A DNA stretch of 64,000 nucleotides from the NCBI RefSeq assembly GCF_058153355.1, contig NZ_CM177019.1. One strand, 5' to 3'. The notes beneath the pieces are model-generated. The model saw nothing but the letters and a program-made list of their open reading frames with translations. It had not been told where the DNA came from and ran no database searches. Below, piece after piece: positions 3,110-57,210 of the stretch; positions within the stretch are counted from its first letter, which is position 1; each line of letters starts with the position of its first letter. Made by a program: the position numbers and the translations under genes.

Positions 3110-3282
3110 CAAGTTCTTTTGTGTTGCATTGCTGGCGTAAATGTCAGCAATGCAGCATTTCCTCACGATTCTCCTTTGACGATCGCACTTTTTGCTCGTT
3201 ATGATGGCGTCGCTAGCCTCAGTAAATCCTTACTCCGGCGGTGCGCAACCTGTGCGCGTGAACCACTATCTGAATGCTCATC

Positions 3283-46566: not shown

Positions 46567-46839
46567 ATGTCTCATACAATCCGTGATAAACAGAAACTGA
46601 AAGCGCGTGCCAGTAAGATTCAGGGCCAGGTCGTGGCGCTCAAGAAAATGCTCGACGAGCCGCACGAATGCGCAGCTGTTCTACAACAGATTGCTGCTAT
46701 CCGTGGCGCGGTAAACGGCCTGATGCGCGAAGTGATTAAGGGGCATCTGACGGAACACATCGTTCACCAGGGGGATGAGCTAAAACGTGAAGAAGATCTG
46801 GATGTCGTTCTGAAGGTGCTGGATTCTTATATCAAATGA
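46567..46839 (+). CDS. rcnR: Ni/Co-responsive repressor (CsoR/RcnR family)
   Basis: 90-aa ORF recognised as RcnR. Confidence 0.9.
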
Positions 46840-46908
46840 AAGTGCCTAATATGGCCGTAGTTGAGGCAATAAATAGAGGGACAAGTGACGTTAAGCTGAA
46901 TTAGAGTA

Positions 46909-46932
46909 AATGGCGTGAGGACACACGCCATT
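46909..46932. terminator. Hairpin between rcnR and the convergent small-protein gene
   Basis: aatggcgtg-aggaca-cacgccatt. Confidence 0.4.
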
Positions 46933-46948
46933 CGAGGATATAGTTTGA

Positions 46949-47263
46949 TTAATTTTCGAAAAATTGCTTCACAGCCCAGCCACCATGACCACCTGGAGTT
47001 ATGAATGAAACAAAACCTTTGTCATCGACGCTCTGGATTTCTACTGTCATTGATTCATCTAACACGCGACATTTATTGGATGTAATGAGACTCAGCATAG
47101 CCTGTTGGTCATTGTCCTGGATGTAACTGATCATCTCGTAAAAGTCAGTTAACTTTTTACAGTTAAATGTACCTTCTTTAAGTGTTGCGCTGTCTCCGTG
47201 ACTTAGTGCGAATGCATTTGGCATCATTGCCACAAAGATGACGGTAACGAGTAGTTTTTTCAT
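46949..47263 (-). CDS. Small secreted hypothetical protein (104 aa)
   Basis: Signal peptide (MKKLLVTVIFVAMMPNAFA); lies in a visibly AT-rich segment. Confidence 0.55.
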   Translation of the reverse strand: MKKLLVTVIFVAMMPNAFALSHGDSATLKEGTFNCKKLTDFYEMISYIQDNDQQAMLSLITSNKCRVLDESMTVEIQSVDDKGFVSFITPGGHGGWAVKQFFEN

Positions 47264-47272
47264 TGTAGCCTC

Positions 47273-47620
47273 TTATAATTCAGAACATTCACTGATGTTG
47301 TAAGTGCCTTTTCTACCATCATCGTTTACGAGATGTAGCACGAAGATGATGGGATTGGCATCAATGAAAGATACAGAGACGTTCCCGCTTTCGGTGCTAT
47401 ACATCTTTGCAATCTGTTTTTCACCAATATATGAAAGATCCCAACTCACTCCGTTCAAGCTAAAATGCATCTGTTTGCCGTCAATATCGATGGAGGATTG
47501 TGCCGTAACGGTTTTCCCATTGCTGCCAATTTGACCCTGCTGAAGAGCATCACATTTATAGGAGCTTGCATAAGTAAATAGAGGTAGTAGCAGAAGTGCA
47601 GCAAAAATTTTACTCTTCAT
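47273..47620 (-). CDS. Small secreted hypothetical protein (115 aa)
   Basis: Signal peptide (MKSKIFAALLLLPLFTYASS), two Cys residues; 9 nt upstream of the 104-aa ORF, so probably a bicistron. Confidence 0.55.
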   Translation of the reverse strand: MKSKIFAALLLLPLFTYASSYKCDALQQGQIGSNGKTVTAQSSIDIDGKQMHFSLNGVSWDLSYIGEKQIAKMYSTESGNVSVSFIDANPIIFVLHLVNDDGRKGTYNISECSEL

Positions 47621-48258
47621 ATTTTCCCTTTGCTTGGATTTGAGTTACCTATTTTGGGGTAGTCATTATAAAACTATTAATTAGTAAAATGAACAAGTTT
47701 TCATTTGTTTAGTAATGGTATTGTTTAGGTTTGAAATTATTACGTACTTTCATAGCAATAGGTTGGATAAACAGCAGTTCAGAGAACAAGTTGCACTATC
47801 TACATACTTTCCCGCTTTCCATTGTATGTTAGGTAATAGATAGCCTTTGCCCGTAAGACTAAAAATATTAGAAATGACTCATTCGAATACCTTCTATTCA
47901 CCTTAATATAGGTTTGATTATTGTAATCGTTTAATGTGTCTTATGGATTTTTTCCTACTTTTCATTTGCATAATATAGGGGGCACAGCATGCTCTTGAAA
48001 TTAATTATTAAGATATTTAAATTTTACAGCACACAACTACTTTTCGTTGTCTTATGTGTTGAACGTACTTCGAGTATAGGTAGGGTTGTATATATATTGC
48101 GTGGGTAGAGTTAGAATAGAGGAGGCATCATTTATAGAATATTCAAGAACGTTAACCTGTGATCAATAAATAAAAATATCAAATGGTGTTCAAACATATT
48201 TTTCTATGAAAAATCCAGCCATCTATGATGAATTTTTAGATCCATTTTAATTAAAGTA

Positions 48259-48537
48259 TGATTATGAACCAATATTTAGCCAAGAATGGTGGTATAGCGC
48301 GTATCCAATGACACCGGAAAACGCATCTATGAAGTCCTTGTTTATCTCTATAAGAGGAAATCAACACTAATAAAATATAGTGATGTAACACATCGAGCAG
48401 GTTGCTCTGATGCTGGTCTTCAACTGTGGCTTAAACAGCTATCAAACTTCGGTGTTATTGAGATGAAAGAATTATCTTTCTCAACTTTCAATCTCAAAAA
48501 GCTAGAGGAAATAGACCTTAATTATTCCACTCTCTAA
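48259..48537 (+). pseudogene. Possible frameshifted gene remnant
   Basis: ATG-initiated frame MIMNQYLAKNGGIARIQ* continues after a +1 shift as …VSNDTGKRIYEVLVYLYKRKSTLIKYSDVTHRAGCSDAGLQLWLKQLSNFGVIEMKELSFSTFNLKKLEEIDLNYSTL*; no clean start or RBS for the long frame. Confidence 0.2.
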
Positions 48538-48673
48538 ACTTATCTCTTTATTTAAAGTAAAAATGAAAATATTATGGTATCAGCTACGTGGTGGTAACTG
48601 GTGTTTATGATCATAGGTACACATATACAGGGAACCCTGGAAAACAAAAGTAATATATTGATGATTTCGTTTG

Positions 48674-48913
48674 TTATAACTTCGTGGTATCAAGTCCGGC
48701 GGCTTTGAGTCGCTCGGTAAGATTTCTCATTTTGCTGAACTCTGTACCAAAGCTGGCTTTAAGTCCTACACCTTCGCAAAACTCTTTTGCCGTGACGTTT
48801 TTAAGATGGTCAGCGTATTTGATCATCTGGAGGTGCATTTCCATCGTTTGGCTATTTCGTGGTGCGCTGCTAATGGCTTGCTTAATGTTCTCGTAGATCT
48901 GGGTTTCTGTCAT
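48674..48913 (-). CDS. Hypothetical 79-aa protein
   Basis: Intact ORF (MTETQIYENIKQAISSAPRNSQ…) with AT-rich upstream region containing tandem direct repeats. Confidence 0.5.
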   Translation of the reverse strand: MTETQIYENIKQAISSAPRNSQTMEMHLQMIKYADHLKNVTAKEFCEGVGLKASFGTEFSKMRNLTERLKAAGLDTTKL

Positions 48914-48934
48914 TTTTTATCTCACCTATCAAAT

Positions 48935-48964
48935 TTAGATAAATAATATAAATTAGATAAATAA
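48935..48964. promoter_or_regulatory. Two direct repeats TTAGATAAATAA (18-bp register) just upstream of the 79-aa ORF
   Basis: Exact 12-nt repeats at 48935-48946 and 48953-48964. Confidence 0.3.
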
Positions 48965-49129
48965 GATAATCAATAGTTTTTACCATATGAATAATGGATG
49001 TGGATTGTTTCTTTTTCATTTCTGATATGGAGTACAAAATGGGGTCACAATGAAGAAGCGATGAATGGAGGCGAGCTTGCATCTGCAAGCCTCTTCCCCT
49101 AATCTGGCACAAAATATAGAGATTCAACC

Positions 49130-49258
49130 AAACGACTCGGGGTGCCCTTCTGCGTGAAGGCTGAGAAATACCCGTATCACCTGATCTGGATAATGCCAGC
49201 GTAGGGAAGTCACGGACCACCAGGTCATTGCTTCTTCACGTTATGGCAGGAGCAAACT
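49130..49258 (+). ncRNA. TPP (THI-box) riboswitch in the thiM leader
   Basis: cggggtgcccttctgcgtgaaggctgagaaatacccgtatcacctgatctggataatgccagcgtagggaa matches the canonical thiM aptamer; the expression platform runs into the thiM ribosome-binding site. Confidence 0.8.
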
Positions 49259-50047
49259 ATGCAAGTCGACCTGCTGAGTTCCGCGCAATCTGCGCACGCG
49301 TTACACCTTTTTCACCAACATTCCCCTCTTGTGCATTGCATGACCAATGATGTGGTGCAAACCTTTACTGCCAATACCTTGCTGGCGCTCGGTGCATCGC
49401 CAGCGATGGTTATCGAAACCGAAGAAGCCAGTCAGTTTGCGGCTATCGCCAGTGCCTTGCTAATTAACGTCGGCACGCAGACGCAGCCACGCGCACAGGC
49501 GATGCGTGCTGCCGTTGAACAGGCAACACACTCTCAAACCCCCTGGACGCTTGATCCGGTCGCGGTTGGCGCACTCGATTATCGTCGCCGTTTTTGTCAT
49601 GAACTTTTATCTTTTAAACCGGCAGCGATACGTGGTAATGCTTCGGAAATCATGGCATTAGCTGGCGTTGCTAATGGTGGACGGGGAGTGGACACCACTG
49701 ACGCCGCAGCTAATGCGATACCCGCTGCACAAACACTGGCACGGGAAACTGGCGCAATCGTCGTGGTCACAGGCGAGGTGGATTATGTTACCGATGGTCG
49801 TCGCACCGTTGGCATTCACGGCGGCAATCCGTTAATGACCAAAGTGGTAGGAACTGGCTGTGCATTATCGGCAGTTGTCACTGCCTGTTGCGCATTACCA
49901 GGCGATATGCTGGAAAATATCGCATCTGCCTGTCACTGGATGAAACAAGCCGGAGAACGCGCCGTCGCCAGAAGTGAAGGGCCTGGCAGTTTTGTTCCCC
50001 ATTTTCTTGATGCGCTCTGGCAATTGACGAAGGAGGTGCAGGCATGA
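49259..50047 (+). CDS. thiM: Hydroxyethylthiazole kinase
   Basis: 262-aa ORF recognised as ThiM, directly downstream of the riboswitch. Confidence 0.9.
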
Positions 50048-50844
50048 AACGGATTAACGCTCTGACAATTGCAGGCACTGATCCCAGTGGTGGTGCGGGG
50101 ATTCAGGCAGATCTCAAAACGTTCTCGGCACTTGGTGCTTATGGTTGCTCAGTGATTACTGCACTGGTGGCGCAAAATACCCGTGGCGTACAGTCGGTGT
50201 ATCGCATTGAGCCTGATTTTGTCGCCGCCCAGCTCGATTCGGTGTTCAGCGATGTGCGAATCGACACCACTAAAATCGGTATGTTGGCGGAAACCGATAT
50301 TGTTGAAGCGGTGGCAGAACGGTTGCAACATTATCAGATCCAAAACGTGGTACTCGACACCGTTATGCTGGCAAAAAGCGGCGACCCTCTGCTTTCACCT
50401 TCGGCGGTTGCCACGCTGCGCAGTCGATTATTGCCACAGGTTTCATTAATAACGCCAAACTTGCCCGAAGCAGCTGCCTTGCTCGACGTGCCACACGCGC
50501 GCAACGAACAGGAAATGCTGGAACAAGGACGAGCGCTGTTAGCGATGGGCTGTGGCGCAGTGCTGATGAAAGGCGGTCATCTGGATGATGAGCAAAGCCC
50601 GGACTGGCTGTTTACCCGAGAGGGGGAACAACGGTTTACTGCACCGCGCATTATGACCAAAAACACCCACGGCACTGGTTGTACGATCTCTGCGGCGTTG
50701 GCTGTACTACGCCCGCGCCATACAAACTGGGCTGACACCGTTCAGGAGGCAAAAAGCTGGCTTTCATCGGCGTTAGCCCAGGCCGACACGCTGGAAGTTG
50801 GTCACGGTATTGGTCCGGTTCACCACTTCCACGCGTGGTGGTGA
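50044..50844 (+). CDS. thiD: Hydroxymethylpyrimidine/phosphomethylpyrimidine kinase
   Basis: 266-aa ORF; ATGA overlap with thiM. Confidence 0.9.
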
Positions 50845-57064: not shown

Positions 57065-57210
57065 AGCACTACCCCGTAGGGCGGATAAGGCGTTCACACC
57101 GCATCCGGCAACCTATGCCTGATGCGACGCTGAAGCGTCTTATCATGCCTACACAGCGCTGCCACGTATGCCGGATAAGGCGTTTACGTTGCATCTGGCA
57201 TAAAAACACG
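57065..57210. repeat. REP/BIME cluster (about three REP units) after fbaB
   Basis: Repeated ggataaggcgtt(c/t)ac(a/g)c(c/t)gcatc(c/t)ggca and tgcctgatgcgacgc units. Confidence 0.55.

Follow-up and report, generated by a model that had tools for sequence, protein, structure and literature searches.

The thiMD locus

The window analysed here, meaning the whole 64,000-nucleotide stretch of contig NZ_CM177019.1 (RefSeq assembly GCF_058153355.1), is E. coli chromosome and carries thiM and thiD, preceded on the same strand by a leader with a TPP aptamer (Table 1). Blocks of homology to the E. coli K-12 genome end at 46837 and resume at 49125, the second nucleotide of the leader. The gap between rcnR and the riboswitch measures 2,287 bp in the window as against 90 bp in K-12, and it contains three small open reading frames (ORFs) on the minus strand. 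Leader positions are numbered as in the published '165 thiM' RNA, where nt n corresponds to window position 49123 + n.

Table 1. Features of the thiMD locus and of the DNA upstream of it, in window coordinates
Feature	Position	Strand	Evidence and remarks
Putative island remnant	46838-49124		2,287 bp in place of the 90 bp of K-12
104-aa ORF	46949-47263	-	81% amino acid identity to a Citrobacter island gene
115-aa ORF	47273-47620	-	83% amino acid identity to a Citrobacter island gene, adjacent to the 104-aa gene there too
HTH_73 protein gene, 79 aa	48674-48913	-	PF24718, 106.5 bits
Predicted sigma-70 promoter, probably island-borne	49077-49105	+	-35 TTGCAT (49077-49082), 17-nt spacer, -10 TAATCT (49100-49105); predicted start ~49112
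82-bp block (attL/attR identity block)	49125-49206		Single attR-type copy in the window
TPP aptamer	49128-49224	+	cmscan; P1 formed by 49134-49137 with 49208-49211
Pyrimidine-sensor junction UGAGA (U39-A43 pocket)	49162-49166	+	J3-2 contacts from PMC2018614
Switch region	49194-49248	+	Ligand-free: nt 71-86 (49194-49209) pair with nt 108-125 (49231-49248); hairpin nt 92-103
Anti-SD CUUC, nt 108-111	49231-49234	+	Pairs with SD nt 126-129 when the aptamer pairs are enforced
Shine-Dalgarno (SD) GGAG	49249-49252	+	Sequence; six bases before the ATG; invariant in the 61-leader alignment
thiM start codon	49259-49261	+	Sequence
thiM	49259-50047	+	TIGR00694, 330 bits; ThiM 94.3% identical to the K-12 protein
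Putative Rho-control region in thiM	49304-49385	+	K-12 termination positions map to 49354, 49360 and 49385; transferred by sequence identity
thiD	50044-50844	+	TIGR00097, 358 bits; ThiD 97.7% identical to the K-12 protein

Away from this locus, the window contains three further RNA matches. An OrzO-P antitoxin RNA (RF02083, 23788-23861 on the minus strand, 90.6 bits) indicates a zor-orz type I toxin-antitoxin locus, which K-12 is not known to have. The Peptidase-S11 RNA motif (RF03039) was matched at 3198-3278 on the plus strand with 73.1 bits (threshold 34.8), and naRNA4/CssrE (RF02564) at 57079-57149 on the plus strand with 60.0 bits (threshold 59.5), the latter looking like a REP-type repeat.

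The thiM leader carries the K-12 riboswitch

An earlier note, made from the letters of the window alone, had labelled 49130-49258 a canonical thiM TPP riboswitch whose expression platform ends at the thiM ribosome-binding site, and had suggested an Rfam scan as the check. Scanning the whole window with cmscan against the 4227 families of Rfam 15 bore the label out: RF00059 (TPP) matched 49128-49224 on the plus strand with 71.2 bits (gathering score 54.3) and E = 5e-12 for the whole window, over the full model (1-105 of 105). The span given in the note begins 2 nt within this match and ends at the base before the thiM ATG, and the SD sequence lies where the proposed platform requires it. A permissive Rfam rescan of 48600-49450 returned no family besides the TPP aptamer. 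Furthermore, nine RefSeq genomes that are 100% identical to the window over 48900-49300 carry a TPP riboswitch annotation at the same place.

The description as canonical holds to the letter, as window positions 49125-49276 (leader nt 2-153) align base for base with the leader of K-12 MG1655. The three-way junction of P1, the pyrimidine arm P2-P3 and the pyrophosphate arm P4-P5 is present, with 21 of the 23 consensus pairs being standard and the other two C-A, and so are both conserved motifs, CUGAGA (49161-49166) and ACCUGAUCUGGAUAAUGCCAGCGUAGGGAA (49179-49208). The pocket includes the TPP contacts G40, G42 and A43 (PMC2018614), and the landmarks of '165 thiM' RNA, i.e. the ACCA loop 96-99, G117, U118, U119 and the SD bases G126-G129, fall on the expected bases (PMC1920254). 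The aptamer lies in the 5' leader of a thiamine gene and on its strand, thiM starting 35 nt past the aptamer match and being followed by thiD. Since leader nt 2-153 are the same as in the K-12 RNA of the published experiments, the published mechanism applies, and we infer that the window aptamer is a functional thiM TPP riboswitch, with TPP binding and the conformational change transferred from the identical K-12 RNA. As an RNA element it is already known, being the best-studied TPP riboswitch, the textbook one of E. coli thiM.

The identity of the 152-nt leader (49125-49276) to K-12 is complete, compared with 94.3% for the ThiM protein and 94.9% for thiMD DNA. Next to what appears to be a recombination hotspot (see below), such identity points to strong purifying selection or gene conversion acting on the riboswitch.

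Expression platform and putative Rho control

The unconstrained minimum free energy (MFE) fold of nt 1-165 reproduced the published TPP-free model (PMC1920254), in which the anti-SD nt 108-111 sits on GAAG 83-86. When the aptamer pairs were enforced, nt 108-111 shifted to the SD at a cost of +6.1 kcal/mol, which TPP binding could plausibly pay. The folds of the window sequence thus hold the mutually exclusive pairing of the anti-SD, either with the P1 3' strand or with the SD.

Without TPP, the P1 3' strand (GAAG, nt 83-86) and its neighbours would pair with nt 108-125, leaving the SD free and thiMD translated. With TPP bound, P1-P5 would close, and the freed anti-SD CUUC would take the SD GGAG and switch translation off, upon which Rho would terminate transcription in the untranslated, C-rich start of thiM. 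All these switching steps have been demonstrated in K-12 and are carried over to the window by sequence identity. In K-12, translational repression exposes a rut site near nt 200, and termination by Rho follows at nt 231, 237 and 262, which fall in codons 20-34 (Bastet et al., PMC5499598). The window shares with K-12 the C-rich, G-free tract at nt 181-205 (C 48%, G 0%, centred on nt 193) and keeps the stem-loop at nt 209-236 (49332-49359), in which one G-C pair of K-12 is now G-U. The window riboswitch thus has the same aptamer, anti-SD/SD platform, thiMD genes, rut-like tract and stem-loop as that of K-12 (PMC1920254, PMC5499598), and differs from it in the promoter and the first transcribed bases.

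When nt 1-150 were folded without constraints, CGACU (nt 10-14, 49133-49137), which is the 5' strand of P1, paired with AGUCG (nt 141-145, 49264-49268). This partner corresponds to thiM codons 2-4, and the codons GTC GAC are specific to Escherichia, most other genera having CCT GAC. The predicted pairing could be due to chance or be an additional contact of the ON state.

Conservation across Enterobacterales

An exact-pattern scan with one genome per species, the pattern fixing the 3' half of the aptamer, yielded 120 Enterobacterales loci, in 95 of which ThiM follows 88-117 nt downstream. The remaining 25 showed no ThiM in the downstream DNA examined, which was shorter than 200 nt in a few. 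These 25 (e.g. loci L012, L013, L027, L034, L035, L043 and L046) come, with a few exceptions, from Morganellaceae (Photorhabdus, Xenorhabdus, Proteus, Providencia, Moellerella), and in them this aptamer variant appears to regulate another gene.

In the alignment of 61 distinct leaders, nt 11-88 and the SD were invariant and the anti-SD CUUCUUC nearly so. A CUUC able to pair with both GAAG and GGAG was present in 97-100% of the leaders. Per-sequence MFE folding recovered the ON helix in 75% of real leaders against 20% of linker-shuffled ones. For the OFF state, the SD:anti-SD helix was not enriched (34% real, 53% shuffled), the pairing potential alone being conserved. The full textbook ON/OFF pattern was obtained for 13 of the 61 leaders, mostly Escherichia-, Kluyvera- and Raoultella-like, as against 1.3% of shuffled controls. 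The support from per-sequence folding is mixed: that for the OFF helix across species is weak, and outside this group thermodynamic prediction alone does not confirm the OFF state. Aptamer covariation was uninformative, because the core pairs never vary in this pattern-selected set; their invariance stems in part from the search pattern fixing the 3' half, yet the 5' half was invariant too. The linker has indels, and overall covariation scores were no better than those of shuffles.

A different predicted promoter upstream of the leader

The part of the locus on which the earlier note was silent is the DNA upstream of 49125: the riboswitch label stands, but the locus is not in the K-12 arrangement, and this DNA is most probably the remnant of an island. 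The window promoter and first transcribed bases are unrelated to those of K-12, whose candidate promoter TTTACA-N17-TACCAT and hairpin GCGAT-TTATC-ATCGC are absent. The K-12-type 90 bp occur in 5,011 of 5,426 complete E. coli genomes, and the window-type proximal 175 bp in at least 468 of the 5,426, including O157:H7 (84% identity), whose upstream architecture is the same as in the window. Among 5,424 complete E. coli genomes with the leader, 413 lack the K-12-type 90 bp, which leaves about 8% of E. coli genomes apparently reliant on a promoter of another type for thiMD. ThiD is required for de novo thiamine synthesis, for which reason the window-type promoter is presumably active.

We predict this promoter to be TTGCAT-N17-TAATCT. 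Sequences homologous to the proximal ~80 bp precede thiM, with the offset unchanged, in Raoultella, Pluralibacter, Enterobacter, Pantoea, Pectobacterium and Pseudescherichia, the cross-genus -10 consensus being TAAkCT; complete islands of E. coli and Citrobacter have the block at their right end too. A simple consensus promoter scan of the window did not call it, and the prediction is based on conservation. The supplements of PMC2760140 list thiM as a primer and a gene entry, no coordinate for a transcription start being found there, and Reg-Seq includes thiM but gives no particulars. CTGGCAC (49105-49110) and TGGAGG-N5-TTGCA were also considered as sigma-54 elements; this reading was discarded, since the -12 element is missing after TGGCAC and the cross-genus block fits sigma-70. 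Conserved structure in the island-type 5' leader extension was also considered and dropped, as the consensus fold recovered the aptamer alone.

Several further observations concern this stretch. A perfect palindrome, GCTTGCA-TC-TGCAAGC (49075-49090), overlaps the predicted -35; its left arm is invariant across genera and its right arm drifts without compensation. The palindrome may be an operator for an island regulator, e.g. the product of the divergent HTH_73 gene, rather than an RNA hairpin. A second widespread module upstream of thiM riboswitches consists of CTGGCATTAyCCT followed by the inverted repeat GATTAAC-N5-8-GTTAATC, with compensatory variants such as ATTAGC...GCTAAT, and is found in K-12 (L002, 4437-4490) and at many loci (e.g. 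L076, L125, L015 and L163). From its sequence, the K-12 allele GGACATTACCATCCT...GCGAT-TTATC-ATCGC looks like a shortened version of this module, which could be a 5' leader hairpin or an operator. An antisense, GTG-initiated ORF of 112 aa (48882-49220, minus strand) spans the promoter and the aptamer; having no Pfam or family match and no RefSeq annotation, it was treated as spurious and is probably not a gene.

Integrase islands at the aptamer

In E. coli WL164 and EC581, which have the window-type sequence, two annotated TPP riboswitches flank 8.4-9.6 kb that start with an integrase. The order is rcnR, a K-12-type promoter, riboswitch copy 1, the tyrosine integrase gene (int), cargo (resolvase/invertase, XRE regulator, replication-initiator-like protein, GmrSD, IS3), an HTH_73 gene, the window-type promoter, riboswitch copy 2 and thiM. 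Aligning the empty site, attL and attR showed that the direct repeat of the E. coli island is exactly leader nt 2-83 (82 bp); in the Citrobacter island it measures ~73 bp. K-12 represents the empty site. Copy 1 (attL) runs to ...GCGTAGGG and is followed by the island arm GGCC(A/G)AAA..., the ATG of int lying 67-68 nt further on. Although it lacks the P1 3' strand, the attL copy still scores 61.3 bits for RF00059.

The integrase (434 aa; PF00589, phrog_1) was detected by megablast in 129 of 5,426 E. coli genomes, including ATCC 8739, and the riboswitch adjoins it in nearly all of the matches listed. Copies of the 82-bp block number 5,701 in 5,424 genomes, a surplus of ~277. Some E. coli genomes have three copies, and one copy is plasmid-borne; these may represent tandem islands or a plasmid-borne element. 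Relatives of the integrase with 78-83% identity extend to at least six genera (Citrobacter, Cronobacter, Enterobacter, Klebsiella, Kluyvera and Serratia), and 545 integrase clusters were retrieved at E <= 1e-30. In all six contexts inspected (Klebsiella, Cronobacter, two of Citrobacter and two of E. coli), a TPP aptamer scoring 60-63 bits ends 67-68 nt before int, and the junction ...GCGTAGGG|GGCC is identical, each time behind the flanking genes and promoter of the respective genus. Scanning metagenomes for this junction gave 47 contigs; the flank was long enough in 37, and in 34 of these the upstream promoters are diverse and of host type. Host flanks and cargo differ among the four genera and 47 metagenome contigs that share this junction. 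The island arms share a hairpin or palindrome directly after the junction, with a compensatory change between GGCCGAAATTCGGCC and GGCCAAAATTTGGCC. Cargo varies between islands and includes SIR2_2, HNH, AIPR, a methylase with HATPase_c_3/Ymh, and GmrSD.

The complete Citrobacter island (9.9 kb) also has the window-type promoter at attR. Its P3 loop reads CTTCCTGG at attL, the host type, but CTTCTGG at attR. This difference implies that the promoter comes from the island, as do the first ~30 nt or more of the aptamer, with the crossover falling between nt ~31 and 83.

These data suggest that the aptamer DNA serves as the attachment site of tyrosine-integrase islands of ~8-10 kb or more, many of them with anti-phage genes. 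Insertion at ...GCGTAGGG (nt 83) would leave a P1-less aptamer behind the host promoter and before the integrase gene (attL), and the other end of the island would provide a promoter and the 5' part of an aptamer which, joined to the native 3' part and the platform, would make up a complete riboswitch at thiM (attR).

Two patterns were seen among the metagenome contigs L154 and L164 and the loci of Siccibacter (L057) and Enterobacter (L036): an intact island joined to an aptamer that is already behind a window-type promoter and an IS3 transposase, and integrase fragments beside window-type promoters. We read both as traces of islands having inserted and decayed here more than once. With regard to the attP of the circular form, a single scan of IMG/VR viral contigs with an exact 34-mer gave 0 matches, and there was no clean attP among the 47 metagenome junctions nor a restored empty site within one strain. 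Three metagenome junctions behind a window-type promoter were considered as attP and rejected, as an IS3 transposase and unrelated genes lie upstream and there is no terminal overlap; a new island beside an older remnant is the more likely reading of their sequence.

A probable decayed island in the window

The window has neither an integrase nor a second aptamer or repeat copy, which is why we class the element as a remnant rather than an island, and why its island origin is argued from homology to intact islands. The right end of the WL164 island matches positions 48232-49124 with 86% identity, and the HTH_73 ORF has 95-99% amino acid identity to the conserved last gene at the right end in WL164 and Cronobacter. 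No Pfam or NCBIfam match was obtained for the 104-aa and 115-aa ORFs, two small core genes of the island whose counterparts are in the Citrobacter island (Table 1). A deletion from just after rcnR into the island would have removed the native promoter, attL, int and cargo and kept attR, and the surviving right end would comprise three small genes and the promoter TTGCAT-N17-TAATCT. We therefore infer that thiMD of the window strain is transcribed from a predicted island-borne promoter, with the riboswitch unchanged. The joint reading, namely a functional K-12-like riboswitch, aptamer DNA used as an island attachment site, and a window that holds a decayed island with an island-borne promoter, has in our estimate a probability of about 0.85.

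Alternative explanations

The alternative that comes closest to being a contender takes the window-type promoter to be the ancient, native thiM promoter of Enterobacterales, from which the K-12 type would be derived and which the islands would have captured from a host. Indeed, TTGCnn-N17-TAAnCT occurs at the same offset in many genera, including Pantoea and Pectobacterium, the homology of the block runs on into the leader (ATTCAA...), and most such loci have no island proteins in their short flanks, island genes being found in a few only. Those flanks, however, mostly end short of an integrase that would lie 8-12 kb away. Moreover, the K-12-type upstream sequence is common to E. albertii and two other Escherichia lineages (86-96% identity), the window-type promoter forms the right end of the island in all three complete islands, host promoters at attL are diverse (34 of 37 being of other types), and in the window the promoter is contiguous with island genes. 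We thus regard a native origin as unlikely for the window, while the strict matches to the window-type motif (20 of 94 thiM loci of other genera), together with the few flanks with island genes, mean that in some genera the promoter could be a resident one.

It is very improbable, in our judgement, that the locus is simply an ordinary thiM riboswitch whose upstream 2.3 kb are an unrelated insertion or IS debris with no role for the aptamer as a recombination site. Islands commonly insert between core genes, the window has one aptamer copy and no integrase, and a pan-genome survey gives the mobile-element type of the rcnR-thiM site as 'None', all of which would suit such a view. Chance insertion does not account for the break from K-12 at leader nt 2, which is the exact start of the 82-bp repeat bounding intact islands, nor for the recurrence of the aptamer-island junction in four genera and 47 metagenome contigs, nor for the homology of the upstream ORFs and the last ~900 bp to intact islands. 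Scarcely credible is the converse, that the window copy is itself a non-functional scar, a pseudo-riboswitch like the attL copies. Such copies do pass the Rfam threshold with 60-63 bits without a P1 3' strand, and a covariance-model match alone is thus no proof of function, but P1 is complete in the window (49134-49137/49208-49211), the score of 71.2 bits is like that of K-12, and the whole platform and the SD are kept, with thiM and thiD intact downstream.

Possible control of the integrase by thiamine

The arrangement of the islands would put int behind the host thiM promoter when integrated and behind the island promoter when excised, in both cases via the aptamer, so that mobility could answer thiamine status; conversely, the window strain and O157:H7 may express thiMD unlike K-12. 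We consider this an improbable proposition. Restoration of P1 in the attL copies was looked for and discarded: a nearby AGUC is present in the WL164-type arm only, and a complement to GACUC is lacking from most of the 24 distinct arms, which makes canonical TPP control of int unlikely. Should the proposition be true, the difference in thiMD expression would be due to the foreign promoter and the first dozen or so transcribed bases.

Related systems and significance

The closest likeness is to the dusA islands, in which a tyrosine-integrase island enters a conserved target at its 5' end and puts island sequence in place of that end, with putative promoters before and after insertion and short direct repeats at attL and attR (Farrugia et al. 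2015, PMC4482086). Both groups replace the 5' end of the target, provide for promoters in both states and have repeats at their ends. The dusA target is protein-coding, with a 21-bp semiconserved repeat, whereas the thiM islands appear to use a cis-regulatory RNA aptamer with an identity block of 73-82 bp and, unlike the dusA islands, would have to rebuild a ligand-binding fold and provide a promoter. Excision of dusA islands has been seen by PCR (PMC4482086), while the thiM islands are known here from sequence alone.

Islands at tRNA and tmRNA genes split a target that is regenerated by the island, the displaced fragment marking the other end (Islander, PMC4383910), and a phage attB lies in ffs, the gene of 4.5S RNA (PMC12540744). 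What these islands at structured-RNA genes and the thiM islands have in common is a very conserved, dyad-rich, RNA-coding site. In the former it is usually the 3' end of a separate RNA gene that is regenerated, whereas the thiM islands would regenerate the 5' part of an mRNA leader plus a promoter, their displaced fragment lying before the integrase gene. The invariance of aptamer nt 11-88 in the 61 Enterobacterales leaders would allow a broad host range.

Full-text searches, in a literature collection that leaves out most subscription journals, turned up no account of a riboswitch being used as an integration target. A 7,956-bp 'rcnR-thiM' segment listed in the supplement of a pan-genome survey (PMC10121019) carries a type IV restriction system; its mobile-element type is given there as 'None', and it has no hotspot number. 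Two papers on toxin-antitoxin systems had looked like a link between thiM and O157 and were set aside, as the term is absent from their main text. The new part is thus the context, in which the aptamer DNA appears to be the attachment site of a widespread integrase family and the thiM promoter of the window a likely leftover of it.

Work on the thiM riboswitch has been done in K-12, and promoter-dependent properties, among them expression level, co-transcriptional folding and Rho coupling, may therefore not carry over to strains that lack the K-12-type promoter. The thiM islands would form a defined hotspot for anti-phage cargo (SIR2, AIPR, GmrSD, HNH, methylase-ATPase), and the integrase with its conserved att site is a candidate tool for site-specific insertion across Enterobacteriaceae. 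More generally, a riboswitch aptamer would join the short list of structured-RNA DNAs exploited by integrases (tRNA, tmRNA and 4.5S RNA), as the target of a mobile element that would have to rebuild a ligand-sensing fold and supply a promoter in order to spare its host.
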